Source: a virus
Lineage: Duplodnaviria; Heunggongvirae; Uroviricota; Caudoviricetes
Reading direction: 5' to 3' (one strand)
Virus record (IMG/VR): IMGVR_UViG_2718218355_000004
Length of the DNA: 54,006 nt
The translations under genes and the position numbers were made by a program. Under the pieces are notes generated by a model that was not told the DNA's origin, ran no database searches, and saw nothing but the letters and a program-made list of their open reading frames with translations. The stretch's first letter is position 1, and every line of letters starts with the position of its first letter. Below, piece by piece: positions 36,889 through 46,549 of the stretch.

Positions 36889-38088
36889 ATGCCATTTGTT
36901 ATTTATGTGTTTACTATCAGTGCCTTTGCGCTCGGACTCGCGGAATTTGTCCCCATTGGGCTGACAGACGTTATGGCTCAGGGGTTGTGTGTGGGTGTGG
37001 AGCAGACCGGGGCAGCGGTTACAACCTATGCACTGGGGGCAACGTTCGCGGCACCCGTACTGTCTGCGCTGACAGCAAGCTGGAGCCGGAAAAATGTAAT
37101 GCTTACAACTGCCGTTGTGTTTACTGCCGGTAGTCTGGCGGCCGCGTTTGCAGCCACATTACCTCAGCTCCTGTTAGCGCGGTTCATTGCTGGTCTGGGA
37201 CACGGCCTGTTTCTGGCTGCGGCATCCAGTACCGCAGCTCGTCTTGCTGGACCGGGTAAAGCAGGCAGAGCGGTGGCTGTGGTATTTGGTGGCTTTACTC
37301 TGGCGATGGCAATCGGCGTACCGCTGAGTACATGGTTGGGGGGGGTGGTCTCATGGCGTCCAGTTCTCGGCGCTATTGCCGCTTTTGGCGCGTTCGGATT
37401 CCTTGGACTGTTGTTCGGTATGAAAGATCCCGTACGCAGCGTGCCCGGTGAACATAGTGACTCAGCAATGCAGAATATCGGCATGCTGTTTAACCGTAAG
37501 TTGCTGGCCGGCGCGCTGGTTACGGTGCTGGCGTATGCAGGCTCGTTTACGGATTACACCTTTATCGCACCTATTCTGACGCAGGTGACAGGGGTTACCG
37601 GAGCAACGGTGAGTCTGTTTATGCTGGTTTACGGTATTACAGCTGCGGTAGGTAATATTCTTGGTGGGAAACTTACCGACAGCATGGGGGTTAATCGTGC
37701 CAATATACTCATCATTAGCGGCATTGTTGTTGTCGTGCTTGGTATGTGGCTGCTGTCATCCTCACCGGTGAGCATGGGCATTCTGGTTGCGCTGCTGGGT
37801 ATGGTGACATTTGCCGCAGTGCCGGCACTGCAGGCCCGTCTGATTGGTGTCGCTGAGCAACATGCTCCTCATGCGCATGGTGTTGCTGCCGGCCTGAATA
37901 TTGCGGGCTTCAACTCAGGTATAGCGCTGGGATCAGTACTGGGCAGCATTACTATAAGCCACGCCGGTATCGTGTATACCGGTATCAGCGGTGCGATTGT
38001 TTCTCTGCTCGGCCTGCTGTTGCTGCTTGCACAAATCCGTCGCAGCCACAGTCGTAAATTTCAACAGGTTAAAATCGTAGGCCAGTAA
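36889..38088 (+). CDS. MFS transporter (sugar/drug efflux-like)
   Basis: 399 aa with about 12 predicted TM helices and an MFS-type loop 2-3 motif. Confidence 0.8.
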   Translation: MPFVIYVFTISAFALGLAEFVPIGLTDVMAQGLCVGVEQTGAAVTTYALGATFAAPVLSALTASWSRKNVMLTTAVVFTAGSLAAAFAATLPQLLLARFIAGLGHGLFLAAASSTAARLAGPGKAGRAVAVVFGGFTLAMAIGVPLSTWLGGVVSWRPVLGAIAAFGAFGFLGLLFGMKDPVRSVPGEHSDSAMQNIGMLFNRKLLAGALVTVLAYAGSFTDYTFIAPILTQVTGVTGATVSLFMLVYGITAAVGNILGGKLTDSMGVNRANILIISGIVVVVLGMWLLSSSPVSMGILVALLGMVTFAAVPALQARLIGVAEQHAPHAHGVAAGLNIAGFNSGIALGSVLGSITISHAGIVYTGISGAIVSLLGLLLLLAQIRRSHSRKFQQVKIVGQ

Positions 38089-38099
38089 AGGGAGGTTAT

Positions 38100-38792
38100 A
38101 TGCTTACCCGTGAAAATATGCTTAATGGCACATTTGTCAGGGTGCATGAAGCGCTGCTCCCGGCGAATATGCTCTGGGACGCTGAAAAAATACGCGCATC
38201 AATGAACTCTACTCTGGAGGAGCGCCCGACGGGTGCTCCTGTCTGGATATTTGCCTACGGGTCATTGATGTGGAATCCCGTGCTGGCGATTGAAGAAATG
38301 CAACGGGCCCGTCTGAAAGGATGGCAGCGCAGTTTCTGCATTCGTTTGATATCCGGACGAGCGACTCCTGATGTCCCCGGCAGGATGTTATCGCTCGACG
38401 AAGGTGGAATTACCGAAGGTATTGCGTTCAGACTGCCGGAATCGACTCTTATTAATGAGCTGGAAATTGTCTGGACGCGCGAGATGATAACCGGTCTTTA
38501 CCGTCCGGTCTGGGCAGACGTTTCGCTAGGAAACGGTGAGGAAATTCAGGCGCTGGCTTTCGTATCAGACAGACTGCATCCGCATTATGAACAGGACAAT
38601 CTTACAGCGACCGTAGCGTTGAGCATCGCATCTGCCCGTGGAGACATTGGCACGAATGCAGATTATGTATGGAAACTGCAGGCCACTCTGGGTGCGTTGG
38701 GAATACGGGATGATTACGTGAGTGAACTGGCCCTTGCTCTGCATGAGGCTCCCTGTAACGATAAACTTCATCAGCGAGGCGCTTCACTATGA
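38100..38792 (+). CDS. ChaC-family gamma-glutamylcyclotransferase-like protein
   Basis: 230 aa with the ChaC signature IFAYGSLMWNP and alignment to ChaC throughout, from memory. Confidence 0.8.
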   Translation: MLTRENMLNGTFVRVHEALLPANMLWDAEKIRASMNSTLEERPTGAPVWIFAYGSLMWNPVLAIEEMQRARLKGWQRSFCIRLISGRATPDVPGRMLSLDEGGITEGIAFRLPESTLINELEIVWTREMITGLYRPVWADVSLGNGEEIQALAFVSDRLHPHYEQDNLTATVALSIASARGDIGTNADYVWKLQATLGALGIRDDYVSELALALHEAPCNDKLHQRGASL

Positions 38793-39670
38793 GCCATCTG
38801 AGCCATCTGCGAACGTTTCTTGAGGCCTATCGCTCTGGCTCCTTTTCAAAGGCGGCAGAACTACTGGGCATCACTCAGCCCGCGGCGTCACAGCATATCC
38901 AGTCTCTTGAGACTCTGGTTGGTAAGCGTCTGTTTATCAGGCAGGCCAGAGGCGTGACGGCAACCGAAGCTGCGGATGAGCTTGCCCGCTCAGTTTCACC
39001 CTTCATTGATGGTCTGGAAGAAAAGCTGTCCTCTTTCCGGTCAGGCTCTGTACGCGGGGGAACAATTAATCTGGCAGGACCGCCAGATTTTATTCATTCC
39101 CGGCTTGGGACAGTAATGGCTCCACTAATGAAGGAGGGGTATCGCCTACGCTTTCATACCGGCAATAAGCAACGTATTTATTCCCTTTTGCATGACGGGA
39201 GCGCCGATCTCGCTGTTACCGCATCTATGCCTGATGACCGTCTGTACGGCTATGCACATCTACTGACTGAACGCATGCTCCTTGTTCATGCTCCCGCCAT
39301 GTCAGAGATCATCGGATCAGAACCTGGTGCTGAAACGCTTGCCTCATTACCGCTGATTGCTTATGACGAAGAGTTGCCACTGATTAGAGCGCTCTGGGCC
39401 TCCATGTTTCAGAGAGCCCCTGAGATGCAGGCTACATTCACCATTCCGGATTTACGTATTATCCGCGACTTGGTCTGTGACGGCCACGGGTGGACAGTGC
39501 TGCCGGATTATCACTGTGACAATGACCTGAAAAGTGGTCGCCTGATTTCAGTGACACCTGCAGACCTCGCTCCGACTAATCATCTTTATCTGGTCTGGAA
39601 CAAAAGGACGGCTAATAACAGCCGAACCGCCTATGTTCGGGATTACATTCTTAAAACGTTTCCGCGTTGA
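38789..39670 (+). CDS. LysR-family transcriptional regulator
   Basis: 293 aa; N-terminal LysR HTH (FSKAAELLGITQPAASQHIQSLE) and C-terminal substrate-binding domain; start overlaps the chaC-like stop. Confidence 0.85.
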   Translation: MSHLSHLRTFLEAYRSGSFSKAAELLGITQPAASQHIQSLETLVGKRLFIRQARGVTATEAADELARSVSPFIDGLEEKLSSFRSGSVRGGTINLAGPPDFIHSRLGTVMAPLMKEGYRLRFHTGNKQRIYSLLHDGSADLAVTASMPDDRLYGYAHLLTERMLLVHAPAMSEIIGSEPGAETLASLPLIAYDEELPLIRALWASMFQRAPEMQATFTIPDLRIIRDLVCDGHGWTVLPDYHCDNDLKSGRLISVTPADLAPTNHLYLVWNKRTANNSRTAYVRDYILKTFPR

Positions 39671-39800
39671 TGTTTGAAACGGATGATTGGCGATGCGTAT
39701 CATAAGTTACGTATGTCCGCTTCTGGCACAAAGCAGACGCCCACTCTCACGCGAATGCTTTGCCCTTGACTTGCCAACAACCGTATCGCTTGCTCCGCAA

Positions 39801-41078
39801 CTATGGTTTTTTATTAGAATCTTCGCCACTAAATAAATTATAATAAATTGATTTTATTATATATCTGTCAGAATCTATATGGTCAGCACGAGTAGCATGC
39901 TCTAATGTTTCAAATGCTAGGGTTTGTGCGGCTTCAGCAAAAATTCCAGGCCACCCCTTACTCAGCATCGACAGTCCTTTAAGTACCCTTATCTGAATTT
40001 CCCTCATACTGGCACCATCGCGCGCAACAGGTGAGAAAAAGTCTTCAAGTAGATCGTTATTCTGAAGTGGTGCAACATGTACAGAAGGATATTTCACTTC
40101 TATTTCATCAGATTTATTCTGCGCGTAAGCGGAAAGTATACGTACACCTCTGCCAATGACATCAATGGCGGTTCCAGGATCGTTCACTGCGGGGGAAAGG
40201 GCTCGGCAGGCTATTTCGGCCATGACGCTAAGACAAAATCGGGGGTCCTGAGCAAATGAACGTACATCCGAGACAATAATCGTCTCAAGTAAATCGGTGC
40301 TGATTGATGACTCCTGGCCCTGACTCAGGTACAAAACTGGCGTGGACGGATGTATGAAACTGCCCGGCTGCGCCACGAGGTATACATGACGGGGATCATT
40401 GGTCAGCAGCTTGCTGAGTTTCACCATATCAACATATTCAACATAGCCAATCTTTTTCGGATAAACTGCAACCGTTCCTTTCGGCTGTTCATTGTTCTCA
40501 AGCCATGGATATCCGCCGAGACAGGGATTTCTTGCTCTCGCAATAAATGTTTCGATGGCCGCCTGTTCTACTTTTGCCGTTGTCTCACCAACCCTCCCCA
40601 GAGAGGTCAAATGCTGTATCCAGCGAAGCAATGTGATGAGGATTAAGGCAATGACAACCAGTGTTACAATGAATAAAATGACTCTCCCCCTTTCTCCATA
40701 AGCTCCCATATTGAGGGCAATAATCCCTACCAGACTGAAGAGAAAAGAACCGATGAAGGTGGCCAGTACATTTTGTGTGGTGACGTCTTCAACAACTAAA
40801 CGAGTAGCTCTGGGAGTCACATTAGTAGTGGCTGAACCGTAGGCTGTGACCATGATGCTCAGCGAAAATGTGGTCACTGCCAGCATACTCGATGCCAGTA
40901 TGTTCAGAATGTTATCGACTGCTTCCGCACCAACTTTCACGGAAACCGACTCAGGTATCATTGATTTAAAAAGAATTGATAAAAGGGCCGTTATTATTGC
41001 GACAATTGCGAATAACGTTGCCCTGAACCATAGTTTTTTAAATGTCTGCTTCAGCATCCATTTCCAGCGTGAAATCAT
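39801..41078 (-). CDS. Membrane protein, DUF2254-like
   Basis: About 425 aa with N-terminal multi-TM region and soluble C-terminal domain; start chosen at internal ATG with GAGGGA SD; family by recollection. Confidence 0.5.
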   Translation of the reverse strand: MISRWKWMLKQTFKKLWFRATLFAIVAIITALLSILFKSMIPESVSVKVGAEAVDNILNILASSMLAVTTFSLSIMVTAYGSATTNVTPRATRLVVEDVTTQNVLATFIGSFLFSLVGIIALNMGAYGERGRVILFIVTLVVIALILITLLRWIQHLTSLGRVGETTAKVEQAAIETFIARARNPCLGGYPWLENNEQPKGTVAVYPKKIGYVEYVDMVKLSKLLTNDPRHVYLVAQPGSFIHPSTPVLYLSQGQESSISTDLLETIIVSDVRSFAQDPRFCLSVMAEIACRALSPAVNDPGTAIDVIGRGVRILSAYAQNKSDEIEVKYPSVHVAPLQNNDLLEDFFSPVARDGASMREIQIRVLKGLSMLSKGWPGIFAEAAQTLAFETLEHATRADHIDSDRYIIKSIYYNLFSGEDSNKKP

Positions 41079-41113
41079 TCTGCATTCCCTCATATTGCAG
41101 CCGGGATAAATAA

Positions 41114-41134
41114 ATGCCGCCTCTGTGGCGGCAT
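41114..41134 (-). terminator. Hairpin downstream of the BCCT transporter gene
   Basis: ATGCCGCC-ACAGA-GGCGGCAT (minus strand) followed by an A/T-rich tract. Confidence 0.35.
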
Positions 41135-41141
41135 GTTGCTG

Positions 41142-43145
41142 TTAACGAACCAGATGCAGGAAGTGCAGGTGTTTTTCGTACTGGTCCAGTATGTCATTAA
41201 TCAGCTGTTCCTGATTCCAGCCCATTACATCATAATTTTGGCCGCCCTCTTTGAGATAGACTTCAGCGCGATAATATCGATGTTGTTCACTCTGCTGCTC
41301 ATCATTATCCAGCGCAGCGAGCGCGAAGGTCGGTGAGTTATACCCGCGAAGCCTCACTTCATATATATAATTCAGCTCGTTGCCCAAATCGACTTCAAGG
41401 CGAATACGATCCTCGGCGGCGTCACTGATGTGGCTTATCGTTCCCTGCTTGTTAAGTTCCTCCTGAACCAGCGTCATGGCGGGTTGGATAATGTCGTCCA
41501 TAAAACGTTTCACAAGAGAGCGCTTCGGCAAATACGCGATATTGCGTAACCTTCTCTGCCAGGGAATTGGGTTACGTGCAGCCGTAGGAGCAATAGTCGC
41601 CATGCTAAGGCTTTCACGCTTGGTCAAATCCCGACGCAGGGCTTTTAACAGTCCGTATATGGATATTAATAAGATAACTGAGAAGGGCAATGCACTCGCT
41701 ATCGTTACGGTTTGCAACGCACTCAGCCCCCCTGCGATCAGCAGGGCAATAGCAACAACGCCCATGAGCGATGCCCAGAAAATTCGCTGCCAGACGGGCG
41801 TGTTTGCCACCCCACCTGATGCCAGAGTATCCACAACCATTGCCCCCGAATCAGCAGACGTTACAAAGAAGACGATGACCATCGCCATTGCAATGAATGA
41901 CAGCACGGAAGAGAACGGGAAATGCTCCAGGAAATTAAACAGGGCAAGCGCAACATCCTGCTGAACGGTATTGGCGAGGTCAGTGGCGCCCTGGTTCATG
42001 ATGAGATAGATGGCGCTGTTTCCAAACACCGTCATCCACATGAGCGTAAAGCCGGCGGGAACAAACAACACGCCAGTCACGAACTCACGAATTGTCCTGC
42101 CGCGGGAAACGCGTGCAATGAACATACCTACAAACGGCGACCATGAAAGCCACCATCCCCAGTATAATAATGTCCAGCCCCCCAGCCAGTTGCTCGACTT
42201 GGGTTCATACGCGTAAAGGTTGAACGTTTTACTCACCAGTTCCGACAGATAACCACCCGTATTTTCCACAAATGACTTCAGCAGAAGCACAGTGGGACCC
42301 AGGCACAAGACCAGCGCCAGGAGCAACACCGCCAGGCCCAGATTAAGCTCAGACAGGATGCGTATTCCCTTGTCCAGGCCGGACACCACCGAAATCGTCG
42401 CTAACCCCGTGATGACCACGATCAAAATGACCTGTACCGTTTCATTGATGGGCACGCCGAAAAGATGGTTCAAACCGGCATTCACCTGCAATACACCGTA
42501 ACCCAGCGATGTTGCAACGCCAAAGACAGTGCCTATCACGGCGAAGATATCAACCGCGTGGCCTATAGGCCCGTAAATGCGATCGCCGATAATGGGATAG
42601 AGCGCAGAACGCAGCGTTAAAGGCAGACCGTGACGGTAACTGAAAAAGGCCAGAATCAGCGCCACGATGGCATAAATTGCCCATGCGTGCAGACCCCAGT
42701 GGAAGAACGTCAGGCGCATGGCTTCCTTCGCTGCCGCAACGGTCTCTGGAGTGCCGACAGGTGGCGAAAGATAATGCATCACAGGTTCGGCAACGCCAAA
42801 GAACATCAGGCCGATCCCCATCCCTGCCGAAAAAAGCATCGCGAACCAGGAGTGGTAGCTGAAATCAGGCTGCGCATGGTCTGGGCCCAGCTTTATATCA
42901 CCGTAACGTGAGAGTCCAAGGAACGTGACGCTCAGTAAAATCAGGGCCACAGCAAGTATGTAGAACCAGCTGGCATTCGTGAAGATTTGTTGCTGAAGTA
43001 GTTTAAAATTTTTGTCGGCGACATCCGGGAATACGGCGGCAAAGGCGACAAGAAGGAAAATTAGCAAAGCAGATGTAAAGAATACCGCTTTGTTAATCTG
43101 GCTTGTAGACTTCTTTGGGGTTGTATCATTTTCACTCATAATCAT
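41142..43145 (-). CDS. BCCT-family transporter, BetT-like (choline/betaine/carnitine)
   Basis: 667 aa; BCCT transmembrane core with conserved Trp-rich motif (WTLLYWGWWLSWSPFVGMFIARVSRGRTIREF) and long C-terminal cytoplasmic extension like BetT. Confidence 0.85.
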   Translation of the reverse strand: MIMSENDTTPKKSTSQINKAVFFTSALLIFLLVAFAAVFPDVADKNFKLLQQQIFTNASWFYILAVALILLSVTFLGLSRYGDIKLGPDHAQPDFSYHSWFAMLFSAGMGIGLMFFGVAEPVMHYLSPPVGTPETVAAAKEAMRLTFFHWGLHAWAIYAIVALILAFFSYRHGLPLTLRSALYPIIGDRIYGPIGHAVDIFAVIGTVFGVATSLGYGVLQVNAGLNHLFGVPINETVQVILIVVITGLATISVVSGLDKGIRILSELNLGLAVLLLALVLCLGPTVLLLKSFVENTGGYLSELVSKTFNLYAYEPKSSNWLGGWTLLYWGWWLSWSPFVGMFIARVSRGRTIREFVTGVLFVPAGFTLMWMTVFGNSAIYLIMNQGATDLANTVQQDVALALFNFLEHFPFSSVLSFIAMAMVIVFFVTSADSGAMVVDTLASGGVANTPVWQRIFWASLMGVVAIALLIAGGLSALQTVTIASALPFSVILLISIYGLLKALRRDLTKRESLSMATIAPTAARNPIPWQRRLRNIAYLPKRSLVKRFMDDIIQPAMTLVQEELNKQGTISHISDAAEDRIRLEVDLGNELNYIYEVRLRGYNSPTFALAALDNDEQQSEQHRYYRAEVYLKEGGQNYDVMGWNQEQLINDILDQYEKHLHFLHLVR

Positions 43146-43479
43146 TTATTCCATTAATTAAATCCGCACTGGATAGAAGGTACTACCTCTCACAGAGTAG
43201 CAAAGTTCAACTGGCTATGCGGGGTTAATCGGAATGCATGGTGGAATGAGTGCCGATACAAATCATCCTATATTCTAAGGAGTTTTAAGTTACTCAGCCT
43301 GCCAATTACTGGGGCATTTAATTTGTATGATCTGTATCAAAGCTGGGATATAAGTTAAGTGAAGTATATTAGGCACGAATTACCAGCGTCTGCTCTTGGC
43401 ACAAAGCGGACAACCACGCTAGCTCTACCCTGTGCCACAAAATGTCAATTTGCATCTGAACTAATGCACTTTAATCTCG

Positions 43480-43902
43480 TCACTTCAATAAATACCGAAC
43501 ATCCCCCTGATAAAACGACAATATGCGCTGCATAACTTCGCTCTTCCGGCACTCGCGACAGATTATGTTTAGGCGACTGTCGTAGCGACGTATTTCTCCG
43601 TCAGGTAATGACCAGATAAGGTCCGGATCAACCACAACCGGTTTCTTCAGCTTTGCCCTCGATAATTTTTTGCGGGCATTTTGCCAGTCTTTACGAGCCT
43701 GTTCAGACGGGAATAACCCGTAGCCAGAATTGTATACATCGCCACTGGCAACCAGCTCTCTGGCCAGAACGCTCATCAGATATCTTGTTGCCCCAGTTTT
43801 AGCTTCCAGTTGTCGTAACGTCTCGCGCCCACTCTGGCGTACGAGTTCAAGAACCTGCCCTTTAATTTTTTCCCGCTCTTCTTGTGTAAAAACTTTTGCC
43901 AC
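43480..43902 (-). CDS. Hypothetical protein (140 aa), possible winged-helix
   Basis: GTG start with AGGAGG SD; sits immediately after the replication initiator gene, where lambdoid phages usually encode a helicase loader, but shows no ATPase motifs. Confidence 0.4.
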   Translation of the reverse strand: MAKVFTQEEREKIKGQVLELVRQSGRETLRQLEAKTGATRYLMSVLARELVASGDVYNSGYGLFPSEQARKDWQNARKKLSRAKLKKPVVVDPDLIWSLPDGEIRRYDSRLNIICRECRKSEVMQRILSFYQGDVRYLLK

Positions 43903-43942: not shown

Positions 43943-45013
43943 TTACCCCCTGAAGCCCGGCGGAATTTCGTTATCCGGTTCAGAAATATGATTCACACAA
44001 CGCTGGTTGTTCGTGCCGCTTACCGGGAGCAACCAGGGGTTCTCAAAATTCCGGTCCGGTCCAAAAAACGTCGTCGCTCGCTGAACAAATTCCGTTCCCG
44101 TTTTCCCGGTAGCCGCCAAGTATCTTGCGTAACGCCTCACGCCATCCAGCATGGCCTCTGGTGGCACCCCCTCGCGTAATCTGGCCTTCCAGGCACTGAA
44201 AGCGGATTTCTTCGGGTTTGCCCCAGCACGCAACGGGTACTCCCGCCAGACCTGTTCGAACACATCCGGATAATCCACTCGTCCCACAGACTGCCCGGTG
44301 TTTTCCGGGACTACCCGATCGGCTTCCCGCTGAATGGCGGAATCGGCTTCAGGCTGCTGCAGTTGGTGTGATTGCTCCGCCCTTGCGGTCATCACCTGCT
44401 GCACAGCGCCCGAATCGGCTTTCAGCGCATACGCTGAATCGGCTTCCGGTGTCGTGCCTGCTGGCTGACCAAGATTGACGGTCTGAACATCCCCTGCCTG
44501 GTTCGTGGCGTTTTTTACGCCATGGACCATAGTGTTTTGATCTTCTTGATCTGTATCTTTATCTGTATCTTTATCTGTCGTGACTCGTCGTGACATGTGC
44601 GTGACATTTCGTGACGCGCCGTGACAATCGCCATTTTGTTCCCGCTTTCTTTCCCTCTCTCGCTGCGCCCTCTTGCGCTCTGCAGGAGATTTTGCGGTTT
44701 GCGAAATATTGCCGTTGTCCTCTTTAAGCACCTGGCGTTTTTCCCATCCAGTGATTAAATCACCATCAAGTACCCGCCCCTGCATCGTCTGCAAAATTGA
44801 ATCAATTACCTCTTCTGTCACGTCGAGCGCACTTGCCAAATCTTCTGTCGTGACATCAATGTGACCTCGCGTGACATTTCGTGACGCGCTCACCAGGAGG
44901 TGGATATACACTGCCATCACTGTTGCAATTGGCTGTCCTGACACCCTGGCAATTGTTCGCCACTTAGGGTCATTTGGCATGTCATGCCATAATCTGAGCC
45001 AGGCGTTAGCCAT
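43943..45013 (-). CDS. Replication initiator / replisome organizer protein
   Basis: N-terminal MANAWLRLWHDMPNDPKW resembles replisome-organizer N-domains; gene contains two iteron arrays; lies directly after the cro-like ydaS/ydaT pair. Confidence 0.6.
   Translation of the reverse strand: MANAWLRLWHDMPNDPKWRTIARVSGQPIATVMAVYIHLLVSASRNVTRGHIDVTTEDLASALDVTEEVIDSILQTMQGRVLDGDLITGWEKRQVLKEDNGNISQTAKSPAERKRAQRERERKREQNGDCHGASRNVTHMSRRVTTDKDTDKDTDQEDQNTMVHGVKNATNQAGDVQTVNLGQPAGTTPEADSAYALKADSGAVQQVMTARAEQSHQLQQPEADSAIQREADRVVPENTGQSVGRVDYPDVFEQVWREYPLRAGANPKKSAFSAWKARLREGVPPEAMLDGVRRYARYLAATGKTGTEFVQRATTFFGPDRNFENPWLLPVSGTNNQRCVNHISEPDNEIPPGFRG
44578..44624. repeat. Iteron array 1 (5 x CGTGAC at 10-11 bp phasing), putative ori
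   Basis: CGTGAC at 44578, 44588, 44599, 44609, 44619, preceded by AT-rich TATCTTTATCTG repeats at 44548-44577. Confidence 0.6.
44859..44895. repeat. Iteron array 2 (4 x (C/T)GTGAC at 10-11 bp phasing)
   Basis: Copies at 44859, 44870, 44880, 44890; the two arrays encode the repeated peptide SRNVT..VTT in the initiator. Confidence 0.55.
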
Positions 45014-45084
45014 ACTCACCTCTTTTGATACCGAATCTTTTTACTCACAAATTGCCGGAAGTGATCCGGTATGAATATTGCGAG

Positions 45085-45510
45085 TCAATGCACAGCCACA
45101 ATATTTCCTGCAGGGCCACCACGATTCATCTGGTTGAAACCAGCGATCGCCACTGCGACAAAATCATCAGCGTCTCTCACCAGTCGTTCCCGCGTCTCCA
45201 CTAGTTCCCGAAAATAGGCTGAGCTATGGCTGCGCATTCGGGCCACCAGCAGAGGTGGCATTGCTTTTTCGATAGCTGGTAACAACGCCTGAATTTTTTC
45301 AACTGCATCAGGGGTGTCTTTCTCTACCCAGCGGAAAATTTTCTGGGTATTGCGAGCCAGGGCTTCCGGATGGCTGTCGTCATACAGTTCTGGGAACGTC
45401 ATACCCAGTTCAAAATAAGCCCTGGTTATTTCAGCTGCCGGAACTTTTTCACCGTCCGGATGCGCCCAGGCATTCATCGCCATGCGGATGTGTTCATGCT
45501 TGATTTTCAT
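45085..45510 (-). CDS. ydaT: YdaT-like protein (cro-operon, toxic when derepressed)
   Basis: 141 aa; ATG overlapping the 3' end of ydaS; matches my recollection of Rac YdaT. Confidence 0.7.
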   Translation of the reverse strand: MKIKHEHIRMAMNAWAHPDGEKVPAAEITRAYFELGMTFPELYDDSHPEALARNTQKIFRWVEKDTPDAVEKIQALLPAIEKAMPPLLVARMRSHSSAYFRELVETRERLVRDADDFVAVAIAGFNQMNRGGPAGNIVAVH

Positions 45511-45775
45511 GAATCAAGCTCCTAGAAAGTGGTTGTGTTAACATTTTGGTATCTTCCAGCTCGGGCCAAATATTCATCCAATCAAAAGGCCTTAGTTGCT
45601 GACGTGTAACTTCACCATTACTGGCTCGCTCAATAAGGACACATAACGATGCCCCTAACACTTGACCTTTACTCAATGCCTTTCTTAGATAACCGATGCT
45701 GGTACCACACTCGCATGCAAACATACGCTGTTCATCTGACGAAAGAGAATTGAGAAATATTCTTAATTCTTCCAT
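45494..45775 (-). CDS. ydaS: Cro-like HTH protein YdaS
   Basis: 93 aa with HTH (ECGTSIGYLRKALSKGQ); divergent from the repressor gene across an operator region. Confidence 0.65.
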   Translation of the reverse strand: MEELRIFLNSLSSDEQRMFACECGTSIGYLRKALSKGQVLGASLCVLIERASNGEVTRQQLRPFDWMNIWPELEDTKMLTQPLSRSLIHENQA

Positions 45776-45804
45776 AGCTACTCCTTAGTAAACACAGCAA
45801 AGAA

Positions 45805-45880
45805 TACCCATAGGTAAACAAAAGTCAATACCCACAGGTTGTTTACCTTGCAGTAATCGCATCTATTATTTACCTATGGA
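45805..45880. promoter_or_regulatory. OR-like divergent promoter/operator region
   Basis: Three copies of a 12-bp operator-like motif: TACCCATAGGTA (45805-45816), TACCCACAGGTT (45829-45840), TACCTATGGA (45871-45880, overlapping the repressor start codon), plus inverted repeat TAGGTAAACA / TGTTTACCT. Confidence 0.5.
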
Positions 45881-46295
45881 CAAATATGAATTTAGACGAC
45901 AGCAACTCATCAAAATTCGTGATGAGAAATGCGATGGTAAAGCGGTTAACGTGGCCAGAAAGATCGGGCGCGAGCCTTCTTATGTATCAAGAATGTTGTA
46001 CCCAGAGGGGAAAAAGGGAAAAAAACGGATCGCTGATGATATGGTGGAGATTATCGAAGAGTCCTTTGGGTTACCCCGGGGATGGATGGATGGTATCGTT
46101 TCATCATCAACGAACACAGCCTCCAGTTATGAAACAAGGGTTCTAACGCCACGACAACGTATTTTTTTAGATCTCTTAGACGAACTGCCAGAAAGTGAAG
46201 CGGATAACTTATTAAAAACTCTTGAAGAGAAAAAACAGTATTACAATATGATCTACGAAGAAATCCGTAAAAAGAAAGCACAAAACGCATCATAG
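45876..46295 (+). CDS. racR: Prophage repressor (CI-like HTH), RacR-like
   Basis: 139 aa with HTH (VNVARKIGREPSYVSRML); divergent from ydaS/ydaT; operators on both sides. Confidence 0.55.
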   Translation: MDKYEFRRQQLIKIRDEKCDGKAVNVARKIGREPSYVSRMLYPEGKKGKKRIADDMVEIIEESFGLPRGWMDGIVSSSTNTASSYETRVLTPRQRIFLDLLDELPESEADNLLKTLEEKKQYYNMIYEEIRKKKAQNAS

Positions 46296-46327
46296 CTCAC
46301 CAAACAACTAGTCACCAGTTAAGACAC

Positions 46328-46365
46328 CGCAAAAAGTTACCCATGGGTATTTACTTTTTAAATAC
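46328..46365. promoter_or_regulatory. OL-like operator pair downstream of the repressor gene
   Basis: Perfect 12-bp palindrome TACCCATGGGTA (46328-46339) and TACCTATGGGTA (46354-46365), the latter the reverse complement of the OR site at 45805. Confidence 0.5.
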
Positions 46366-46549
46366 CTATGGGTATCCTTCTTTTCATACCAACCCACCCC
46401 GCCCCACAGAATGCAGGGCAATACTTCGAGTTACCAGGCAGTGGTCAGGGGTTAAGTAGCCAGCCCGAGGCGTAAGAACATGACGGCGGGATTCAAATTT
46501 TGCAGTGCAGCAGTTAGTTCCGCCACCCGGCGTTAAGGGGAGAGATAAG

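Follow-up and report, generated by a model that had tools for sequence, protein, structure and literature searches.

Plasmid iterons, such as those of pPS10, R6K and RK2 with their initiators RepA, pi and TrfA, are 17–22 bp long, usually lie outside the rep gene and are generally accompanied by DnaA boxes. In lambda, the repeats and an AT-rich unwinding region are inside the initiator gene, where one cluster of four 18-bp inverted repeats, to each of which an O dimer binds, forms the origin (PMC6022878). In SPP1, oriL consists of direct repeats together with an AT-rich unwinding element inside the organizer gene and is bound by gp38 (PMC6316719). Here we analyse a 54,006-nucleotide (nt) stretch of viral DNA, IMG/VR record IMGVR_UViG_2718218355_000004, which as a whole we call the window, and within it a gene that appears to encode a phage replication initiator. 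From its sequence and that of its relatives, we propose with good confidence that two arrays of a hexamer, GTCACG, together with an AT-rich tract beside one of them, make up an iteron origin for the vegetative replication of a Rac-family prophage, one that is embedded in the gene for its own initiator and would be bound by the N-terminal part of that protein.

The locus differs from plasmid iterons in its 6-bp core, its period of 10–11 bp and its position inside a coding sequence. A preliminary description of this DNA called the arrangement lambda-like, which is apt for the layout, with the putative origin in the initiator gene and the repeats beside an AT-rich tract, but only as an analogy and not as homology, given that Phage_rep_O is not matched and no P-like loader is present. 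As in lambda, the origin would sit between the N-terminal DNA-binding and C-terminal recruitment parts of the initiator; the AT-rich unwinding region adjoins the repeats (about 39 bp in lambda, about 45 bp in the window); the gene holds the place of O, after cro- and cII-like genes and before a ren-like gene; and a palindrome lies beyond the AT-rich tract of the window. By contrast, the initiator is not an O homologue, its sites are 6-bp direct repeats spaced one per helical turn in two arrays of five and four, and the lambda order cI / cro-cII-O-P-ren differs from that of the window in containing P. With SPP1, the window shares direct repeats as well as an AT-rich element inside the initiator gene, a fold resembling the N-terminal domain of DnaD and a full-length though weak match to phage_rep_org_N that falls below the curated cut-off. 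SPP1 differs in having a distant repeat set, oriR, along with a loader, gp39, and a helicase, gp40; the window has neither. On this comparison, the design appears akin to lambda and SPP1 oriL in logic and not in protein family or site structure.

Phased hexamers in the initiator gene

On the + strand the repeated word is CGTGAC, which is GTCACG on the sense strand of the initiator gene. A pattern search returned the five copies at 10–11-bp spacing that the preliminary description had listed for array 1, with starts on the + strand at 44579, 44589, 44600, 44610 and 44620 (spacings of 10, 11, 10 and 10 bp), and Tandem Repeats Finder also detected this array. Array 2, about 260 bp away, likewise exists, although it had been placed some 10 bp too high (at 44859–44895 instead of 44849–44885) and credited with four copies of CGTGAC. 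Three of these are exact, with starts at 44849, 44870 and 44880; the fourth, at 44860, is the 5/6 variant TGTGAC. The spacings are 11, 10 and 10 bp, and the order in the sense direction is GTCACG, GTCACG, GTCACA and GTCACG at 10, 10 and 11 bp. The two arrays share an identical 21-bp stretch, GCGTGACATTTCGTGACGCGC (44599–44619 and 44869–44889), and a single inverted unit is also present (Table 1).

The window contains 29 copies of the hexamer on both strands, a total that is not unusual (shuffled sequences give 20.4 ± 4). Nine of the 29, however, are packed into about 310 bp. With 0.17 copies expected per 320 bp, the Poisson probability of at least nine is about 3e-13 per stretch and about 5e-11 over the window, and the pattern search found no second cluster elsewhere in the 54 kb.

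Next to array 1, the AT-rich repeat reported beforehand is present as three copies of a 12-bp unit, TCTTTATCTGTA, at 44544–44579. The tract to which it belongs encodes DKDTDKDTDQED, is 70–75% AT and is strongly strand-asymmetric. It contains the least stable 40-mer of the gene (44535–44574; 75% AT, free energy −43.4 kcal/mol), which is among the least stable 1.3% of the window.

Selection on the hexamer DNA

One alternative holds that the repeats are a feature of the protein, either a low-complexity peptide (SRNVT..VTT) or a product of slippage, and that the DNA has no role in cis. The repeats are indeed translated within the open reading frame (ORF), as ASRNVTRGHIDVTT and ASRNVTHMSRRVTT: array 1 encodes C-H-G-A-S-R-N-V-T-H-M-S-R-R-V-T, array 2 encodes A-S-R-N-V-T-R-G-H-I-D-V-T, and ASRNVT occurs twice. 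Moreover, disorder is predicted for the linker, and repeats are tolerated in disordered regions. However, a period of 10–11 bp places successive units in different frames, so that the peptide is not periodic. GTCACG is translated in all three frames, giving V-T, x-H-x or S-R, and array 1 reads as C-H, S-R, V-T, S-R and V-T.

Codon choice bears on the same alternative. A scan of viral contigs returned only 99%-identical E. coli copies and was useless for co-variation. Scanning one genome per species with an alignment of the N-domain yielded 38 loci; GTCACG arrays occupy both positions in 26 of these, which come from E. coli, Pseudomonas, Bordetella, Serratia and Aquitalea, among others; the whole comparison covers about 40 homologous loci. 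Residues are numbered here on the mechanically called ORF of 358 amino acids (aa), which opens at GTG 45019, so that RefSeq numbers are lower by 2. In the codon alignment of the 26 loci, codons are invariant in array 2 (V49 is GTC in 24/24, T50 is ACG in 24/24, G52 is GGT in 25/25, H53 is CAC in 25/25 and V56 is GTC in 25/25) and in array 1 (S143 is TCA and V146 is GTC, each in 26/26), whereas equally conserved residues outside the units use two to six codons. Mean codon entropy at conserved residues is 0.23 bits where the third codon base falls within a hexamer (n = 14) and 1.46 bits outside (n = 58; Mann–Whitney p = 7e-8). Codon choice also keeps the inverted copy: V67 is GTG in 22 of 22 loci, and in an Enterobacter locus (L107), whose arrays are built from GTAACG, it is GTT, which yields CGTTAC, the inverse of that locus's own iteron.

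This codon analysis, together with the joint change of hexamer in both arrays of other subfamilies (see below), contradicts an explanation in terms of the protein, which we regard as extremely improbable. Because the units are read in three frames, their synonymous sites are frozen and the hexamer changes in concert, we conclude that selection acts on the hexamer DNA itself, as a dual-coding signal that constrains both codon choice and loop length in a structured domain. The SRNVT..VTT peptide of the preliminary description is thus translated, but as a by-product of the DNA repeat and not as a repeat of the protein.

Unit spacing over both arrays is 10 bp in 101 cases and 11 bp in 30, and the flanks of the 6-bp core are weakly conserved. 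The linker array has three to six units, usually three to five, in 25 loci of the GTCACG class (spacing of 10 bp in 57 cases and 11 bp in 7), and the N-proximal array usually has four. In Pseudomonas phage P7869, the protein of which is 63–70% identical to that of the window in its N-terminal region and unrelated in its C-terminal part, four GTCACG units stand at each of the two positions, along with the DKD tract. The loop encoded by array 2 takes insertions of 6–22 residues that carry extra units, inverted ones included. Among individual loci, a Pseudomonas locus (L110) has a 22-aa insertion in this loop with three inverted units (GTGACA), and an Erwinia locus (L109) has 12 GTCACG units, some of which overlap in a 5-bp register (GTCACGTCACGTCACG).

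Hexamer classes follow the N-terminal part

We searched each array region separately, without a preset word, for the 6-mer with the longest chain phased at 9–12 bp. In 20 of 21 loci the top word was the same in both arrays, and the remaining locus had that word in inverted form. Besides GTCACG, three classes emerged. GTAACG is found at the same two positions in loci from Pantoea, Enterobacter, Marinobacter and Sphingomonas; one uncultured phage and four loci derived from metagenomes have CGAACG there; and Ralstonia phage Firinga, with a protein 38% identical to that of the window, has GCAACG. GTAACG arrays use only two frames, with 10- and 11-bp steps in alternation, and not the third, in which a TAA stop would arise, a pattern that shows helical phasing and maintenance of the ORF acting together.

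The residues that discriminate between classes cluster at positions 116, 119 and 123 of a basic helix. The GTCACG class has RK(R)xQR in 25 of 26 loci (K116, Q119 and E123), whereas the GTAACG class has R(V/A)(R/K)x(Y/F)R plus K123 (4/4; V/A116 and Y/F119), the CGAACG class has RAKxWR and a 9-residue deletion (5/5; A116, K117 and W119), and the single GCAACG protein has RSRLRR (S116 and R119). These classes are not clades of the N-domain, a possibility that we ruled out: with iteron-coded residues removed, identity between classes is 0.65–0.66, compared with 0.70 within the GTCACG class. The C-terminal halves belong to 13 groups unrelated to one another, and these are freely combined with the iteron classes. 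The hexamer class therefore goes with the N-terminal and not with the C-terminal part of the initiator. The candidate origin and initiator specificity put forward in the preliminary description thus gain strong backing from the family, from conservation at the level of DNA, from the joint switch of the hexamer and from its linkage to the N-terminal part.

A different factor might nevertheless read the hexamers, such as the repressor, a Cro- or CII-like protein or a host protein, or they might act in mRNA, in either case serving gene regulation. The units do lie in the early operon transcript, and binding by the initiator is something that we infer. Yet the hexamers are accompanied only by the N-terminal part of the initiator, and the neighbouring genes differ among relatives: Pseudomonas phage P7869 has CI/Cro, Aeromonas phage pAEv1818 a DicA-like gene and Ralstonia phage Firinga small unknown ones. 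Furthermore, a pattern search found no copy of the hexamer in the operator/promoter region (45000–46400). With respect to mRNA, the helical period of the units and the conservation of inverted copies speak for duplex DNA and not RNA, and an Rfam search of the region returned nothing meaningful. We therefore consider reading by another factor or in mRNA very unlikely.

Two further loci, from a Serratia metagenome-assembled genome (MAG; L118) and from Pantoea (L121), have a domain of about 100 aa inserted in the linker (gene nt ~320–650) that looks GIY-YIG-like by eye. Phased ACTACG(T) repeats are found at the start of the insertion and again ahead of the DKD tract.

The AT-rich tract and its surroundings

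The last linker iteron is followed by a (GATAAA/GATACA)n tract in almost every homologue, irrespective of iteron class, and in K-12 ydaU the same tract comes after a different set of repeats. Across loci it takes the form (A/C)(C/T)AGATAAAGATA(A/C)AGAT..., is 20–50 bp long and begins directly after the last unit; locus L120 has eight GATAAA repeats. In the window the tract contains two GATC (Dam) sites, at 44539 and 44548, 9 bp apart. The segment GATCTGTATCTTT (44548–44560) resembles the oriC 13-mer consensus GATCTnTTnTTTT with two mismatches, a match that we count as weak because 30 equally good ones occur in the window.

On the far side of the tract from the iterons is an inverted repeat (Table 1), which as single-stranded DNA folds with −8.7 kcal/mol (z = −2.9). 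The same palindrome, with one compensatory change, is present in the corresponding gene of Stx phage 75/02 (L004, nt ~505–545), and many relatives have CCCCC...GGGGG or another GC-rich inverted repeat at the equivalent position. It is possible that the inverted repeat is a third element of the origin. Segments after the AT-rich tract fold better than composition-matched shuffles (mean z = −1.56, p = 7e-7) but show no advantage over other 60-nt stretches of the genes concerned (p = 0.59).

The initiator protein

RefSeq annotates the product as a 'hypothetical protein'. It matches PHROG 3729, 'replication initiation protein', over its length (E = 2.2e-257; residues 3–358 on profile positions 1–356 of 356), and NCBI names its homologues 'phage replisome organizer'. 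No Pfam family, Phage_rep_O included, is matched at E ≤ 0.01, and where homologues on some phage records are called 'Replication protein O', this is solely the annotators' name. TIGR01714 (phage_rep_org_N) is matched weakly over model positions 1–119 (E = 0.016; 15.4 bits against a cut-off of 49.8), and PHROG 4880 and 5968, both 'replisome organizer', are matched at E = 5.7e-6 and 2e-4.

An AlphaFold2 model built on an alignment of 76 sequences predicts, with confidence, an N-domain at residues 4–95 and a basic helix at 112–132, followed by a disordered segment at 135–165. The best structural match of the predicted N-domain is the N-terminal domain of DnaD. According to the model, array 2 codes for the end of helix 31–47 and for loop 48–57, the inverted unit for turn 66–68, and array 1 with the AT-rich tract for the disordered segment.

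The C-terminal half matches PHROG 1701, 'DnaD-like helicase loader' (E = 8.5e-63), as well as PHROG 270 and 9327; the matches include an annotation as primosomal protein. The C-domain is modelled as a small four-helix bundle, for which no significant match was found in the PDB; a profile of C-domain homologues run against the PDB hit only the unrelated winged-helix N-domains of those homologues. The same C-domain occurs behind other N-domains. It shares 63% identity with the C-terminal part of the protein from Stx phage 75/02; that protein has a different N-domain, and its gene is followed by one for a DnaC-like loader.

The last residues, about 20 (SEPDNEIPPGFRG), match the extreme C-terminus of DnaT, to which the likeness is limited. 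A search of PDB chains with the whole protein returned only DnaT (6aep, 2ru8 and 9zbt), through the last 21–24 residues. The NCBIfam DnaT model NF002770 is matched only at positions 156–179 (19.2 bits against a cut-off of 201), and the single-stranded-DNA-binding domain of DnaT, PF17948, was not detected in the window's initiator, although some homologues with the window-type N-domain have it. K-12 YdaU has this tail too, as do homologues whose C-domains are unrelated. The tail looks like a portable short motif that perhaps docks onto host proteins of replication restart or helicase loading; our literature search found no stated function for the extreme C-terminus of DnaT.

A putative origin and its proposed mode of action

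The steps that we infer, from binding and cooperative assembly to melting of the AT-rich tract, the part played by array 2 and the route of helicase recruitment, would run as follows. Transcription from the early rightward promoter would lead to synthesis of the initiator, whose N-terminal region, comprising the DnaD-like winged helix and the basic helix, would bind GTCACG units. With one unit per helical turn, protomers would be aligned on one face of the DNA and could assemble cooperatively, both on the linker array with its five units and on the array of four units about 260 bp upstream, oligomerising through the DnaD-like domain with their basic helices in successive major grooves. Strain in this complex might then open the adjoining 45-bp AT-rich tract, and the C-domain and DnaT-like tail would bring in host DnaB and the loading machinery. 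Loading of the host helicase is proposed because, beside this gene, the prophage has neither a helicase gene nor one for a loader.

Several observations weigh against an iteron origin of this kind. The Erwinia locus L109 is the sole exception to the pairing of helix and hexamer, combining a GTAACG-type helix with GTCACG repeats. Three loci from Ventosimonas and Entomomonas MAGs (L111, L113 and L120) have a CGAACG-type helix with one or two degenerate linker units and no recognisable array 2, which is therefore not universally required; these may be decaying or minimal origins. No DnaA box without mismatches is present at 44400–45100, another difference from plasmid iterons, and a scan for host-factor sites found none for IHF. 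A conserved helical phase between the two arrays was ruled out, as their distance scatters from 248 to 350 bp across loci and so lends no support to a fixed loop geometry. In DnaD of B. subtilis, the equivalent N-domain is an oligomerisation scaffold and not a reader of DNA sequence, which makes it uncertain which part of the initiator reads DNA. Moreover, the prophage is defective, without tail genes and with IS3 and IS5 insertions, and a literature search found no publication linking this hexamer to iterons and no experimental work on this family of initiators.

Some of these points bear on a variant that refines the iteron-origin reading instead of opposing it, in which the arrays differ in their tasks: array 1 and the AT-rich tract would be the origin proper, and array 2 would be regulatory, acting in autoregulation, titration or handcuffing, the pairing of origins that iteron plasmids display. 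An AT-rich tract follows array 1 only. In the three loci just described, array 1 is retained in reduced form and array 2 is missing; no helical phase is conserved between the arrays, and array 2 varies by insertions that add units, some of them inverted. On the other hand, almost all loci, down to 38% protein identity, have an array 2 with frozen synonymous sites, and conservation of this kind is as compatible with an essential role as with a regulatory one. We hold this division of tasks to be possible but not probable.

A bolder extension of the iteron-origin reading treats initiator and origin as a re-programmable cassette. The basic helix, through positions 116, 119 and 123, would read a 6-bp word in its own coding sequence; the specificity would have switched at least four times, with the changes perhaps spread by gene conversion; and the AT-rich tract might also serve as a crossover point to at least 13 C-domains, many of them ending in a portable tail that mimics DnaT. 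Gene conversion between the arrays fits the 21-bp stretch that is identical in both. In the strongest form of the idea, residues of the array-2 loop touch the DNA, so that a change of site would alter its reader. As a whole this is speculative, and we think it rather unlikely. If true, it would mean that one set of copies sits in a permissive loop of the DNA-binding domain and that the tail could provide loading of the host helicase without a loader of the phage's own.

Prophage setting and distribution

The prophage adjoins ttcA and carries intR, xisR, ralR, recT, recE, racC, kilR, sieB and ydaF (identical CP53 region). On the basis of this attachment site and the intR/xisR/ralR/recT/recE/racC/kilR/sieB set, we assign it to the Rac family. 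The preliminary description had spoken of a Rac-like replicon, which suits the prophage and its place next to ttcA but not the replication module, which is not the YdaU/YdaV module of K-12 Rac and has different repeats. Around the initiator the order is a repressor-like gene, then, divergently, Cro-like (YdaS), CII-like (YdaT), initiator and Ren-like (DUF977) genes (Table 1). A scan for promoters and terminators found no more sites than in shuffled sequence. No helicase, helicase-loader or P-like gene was found downstream of the initiator, and the window has no ydaV-like gene.

Table 1 Features of the initiator gene and its neighbourhood, in window coordinates
Feature	Position	Strand	Description
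Array 1 (linker array)	44579..44625	−	Five GTCACG units (sense); proposed core initiator-binding site of the origin
Array 2 (N-proximal array)	44849..44885	−	Four units; proposed auxiliary initiator-binding site
Single inverted unit	44817..44822	+	CGTGAC on the sense strand; codons D66-V67-T68
AT-rich tract	44535..44579		(TACAGATAAAGA)x3, purine-rich on the sense strand; proposed DNA-unwinding element
Inverted repeat TGGTTCGTGGCGT-TTTTT-ACGCCATGGACCA	44499..44529		13-bp arms; beyond the AT-rich tract from the iterons
Initiator gene	43943..45013	−	RefSeq WP_001262352.1, 356 aa; ATG at 45013
N-terminal winged-helix domain	44729..45013	−	aa 3–97; resembles the DnaD N-terminal domain
Basic helix	44624..44686	−	aa 112–132, PAERKRAQRERERKREQ...; predicted; candidate iteron reader
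C-terminal helical domain	44015..44287	−	aa 245–335; presumed replisome/helicase recruitment module
C-terminal tail VNHISEPDNEIPPGFRG	43946..44008	−	aa 338–358; matches the extreme C-terminus of host DnaT
YdaT-like gene (CII position)	45085–45510	−	Upstream of the initiator, rightward early operon
YdaS-like gene (Cro position)	45494–45775	−	Upstream of the initiator, rightward early operon
Promoter-like site	45828–45801	−	Upstream of the YdaS-like gene
DUF977 / Ren-like gene	43480..43902	−	Next downstream of the initiator, followed by cargo genes

K-12 Rac belongs to the same prophage family and uses the same integration site, and its YdaU has a comparable layout of repeats, then ATAAAGATACAGATAAAGATC, then a C-terminal part with a DnaT-like tail. 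In ydaU (L123:4475–4650), (A/G)RTGTTCAA occurs in about six copies, the last four of which are 12 bp apart, and these are followed by ATAAAGATACAGATAAAGATC and a CCCCCCC...GGGGG repeat; they may mark oriJ, the origin of K-12 Rac. However, the YdaU N-domain is DUF1376, unrelated in sequence to that of the window, the repeats differ, and a DnaC-like gene, ydaV, follows. BLASTP aligns the two proteins only in the C-terminal tail (E = 8e-6) and in the linker with its DKDTDKD tract (E = 0.006).

Between the Ren-like gene and hokD, at ~36900–43150, the window has a cargo block of five genes (about 6 kb) for an MFS transporter, a gamma-glutamylcyclotransferase, a LysR regulator, a DUF2254 protein and a BCCT transporter; ydaV and ydaW occupy this position in K-12 Rac. 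Further into the prophage are the IS3 and IS5 copies, along with a split tolA-like gene.

The initiator region is 100% identical in many E. coli chromosomes. Of 5426 complete genomes, 477 cover at least 80% of the 3-kb region around the gene, and the gene is present on hundreds of viral contigs. Compared with the isolated phage vB_EcoS-689R5, it differs at 7 of 1071 nt, and the origin region is identical base for base; phages Tritos and Evi have this module as well. Relatives of the initiator are present in phages of Pseudomonas, Aeromonas and Ralstonia, and we found no window-type N-domain in model phages.

Implications

That an iteron origin can lie inside its initiator gene is a textbook principle, and the value of the present case is therefore in its details and not in a new concept: a short word that recurs at each helical turn, its occurrence in two arrays, the natural classes of specificity and the DnaT-like tail. 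The arrays offer a clean example of a cis-acting DNA signal that limits codon choice in a structured domain. The natural classes, together with residues 116, 119 and 123, amount to a directly testable code of protein–DNA recognition and could supply initiator–origin pairs that are mutually orthogonal, and the tail offers a clue to the way in which phages that lack a loader gene recruit the host helicase. If confirmed, our proposal would define, for a replication module common in E. coli, both the origin and the word by which it is recognised.

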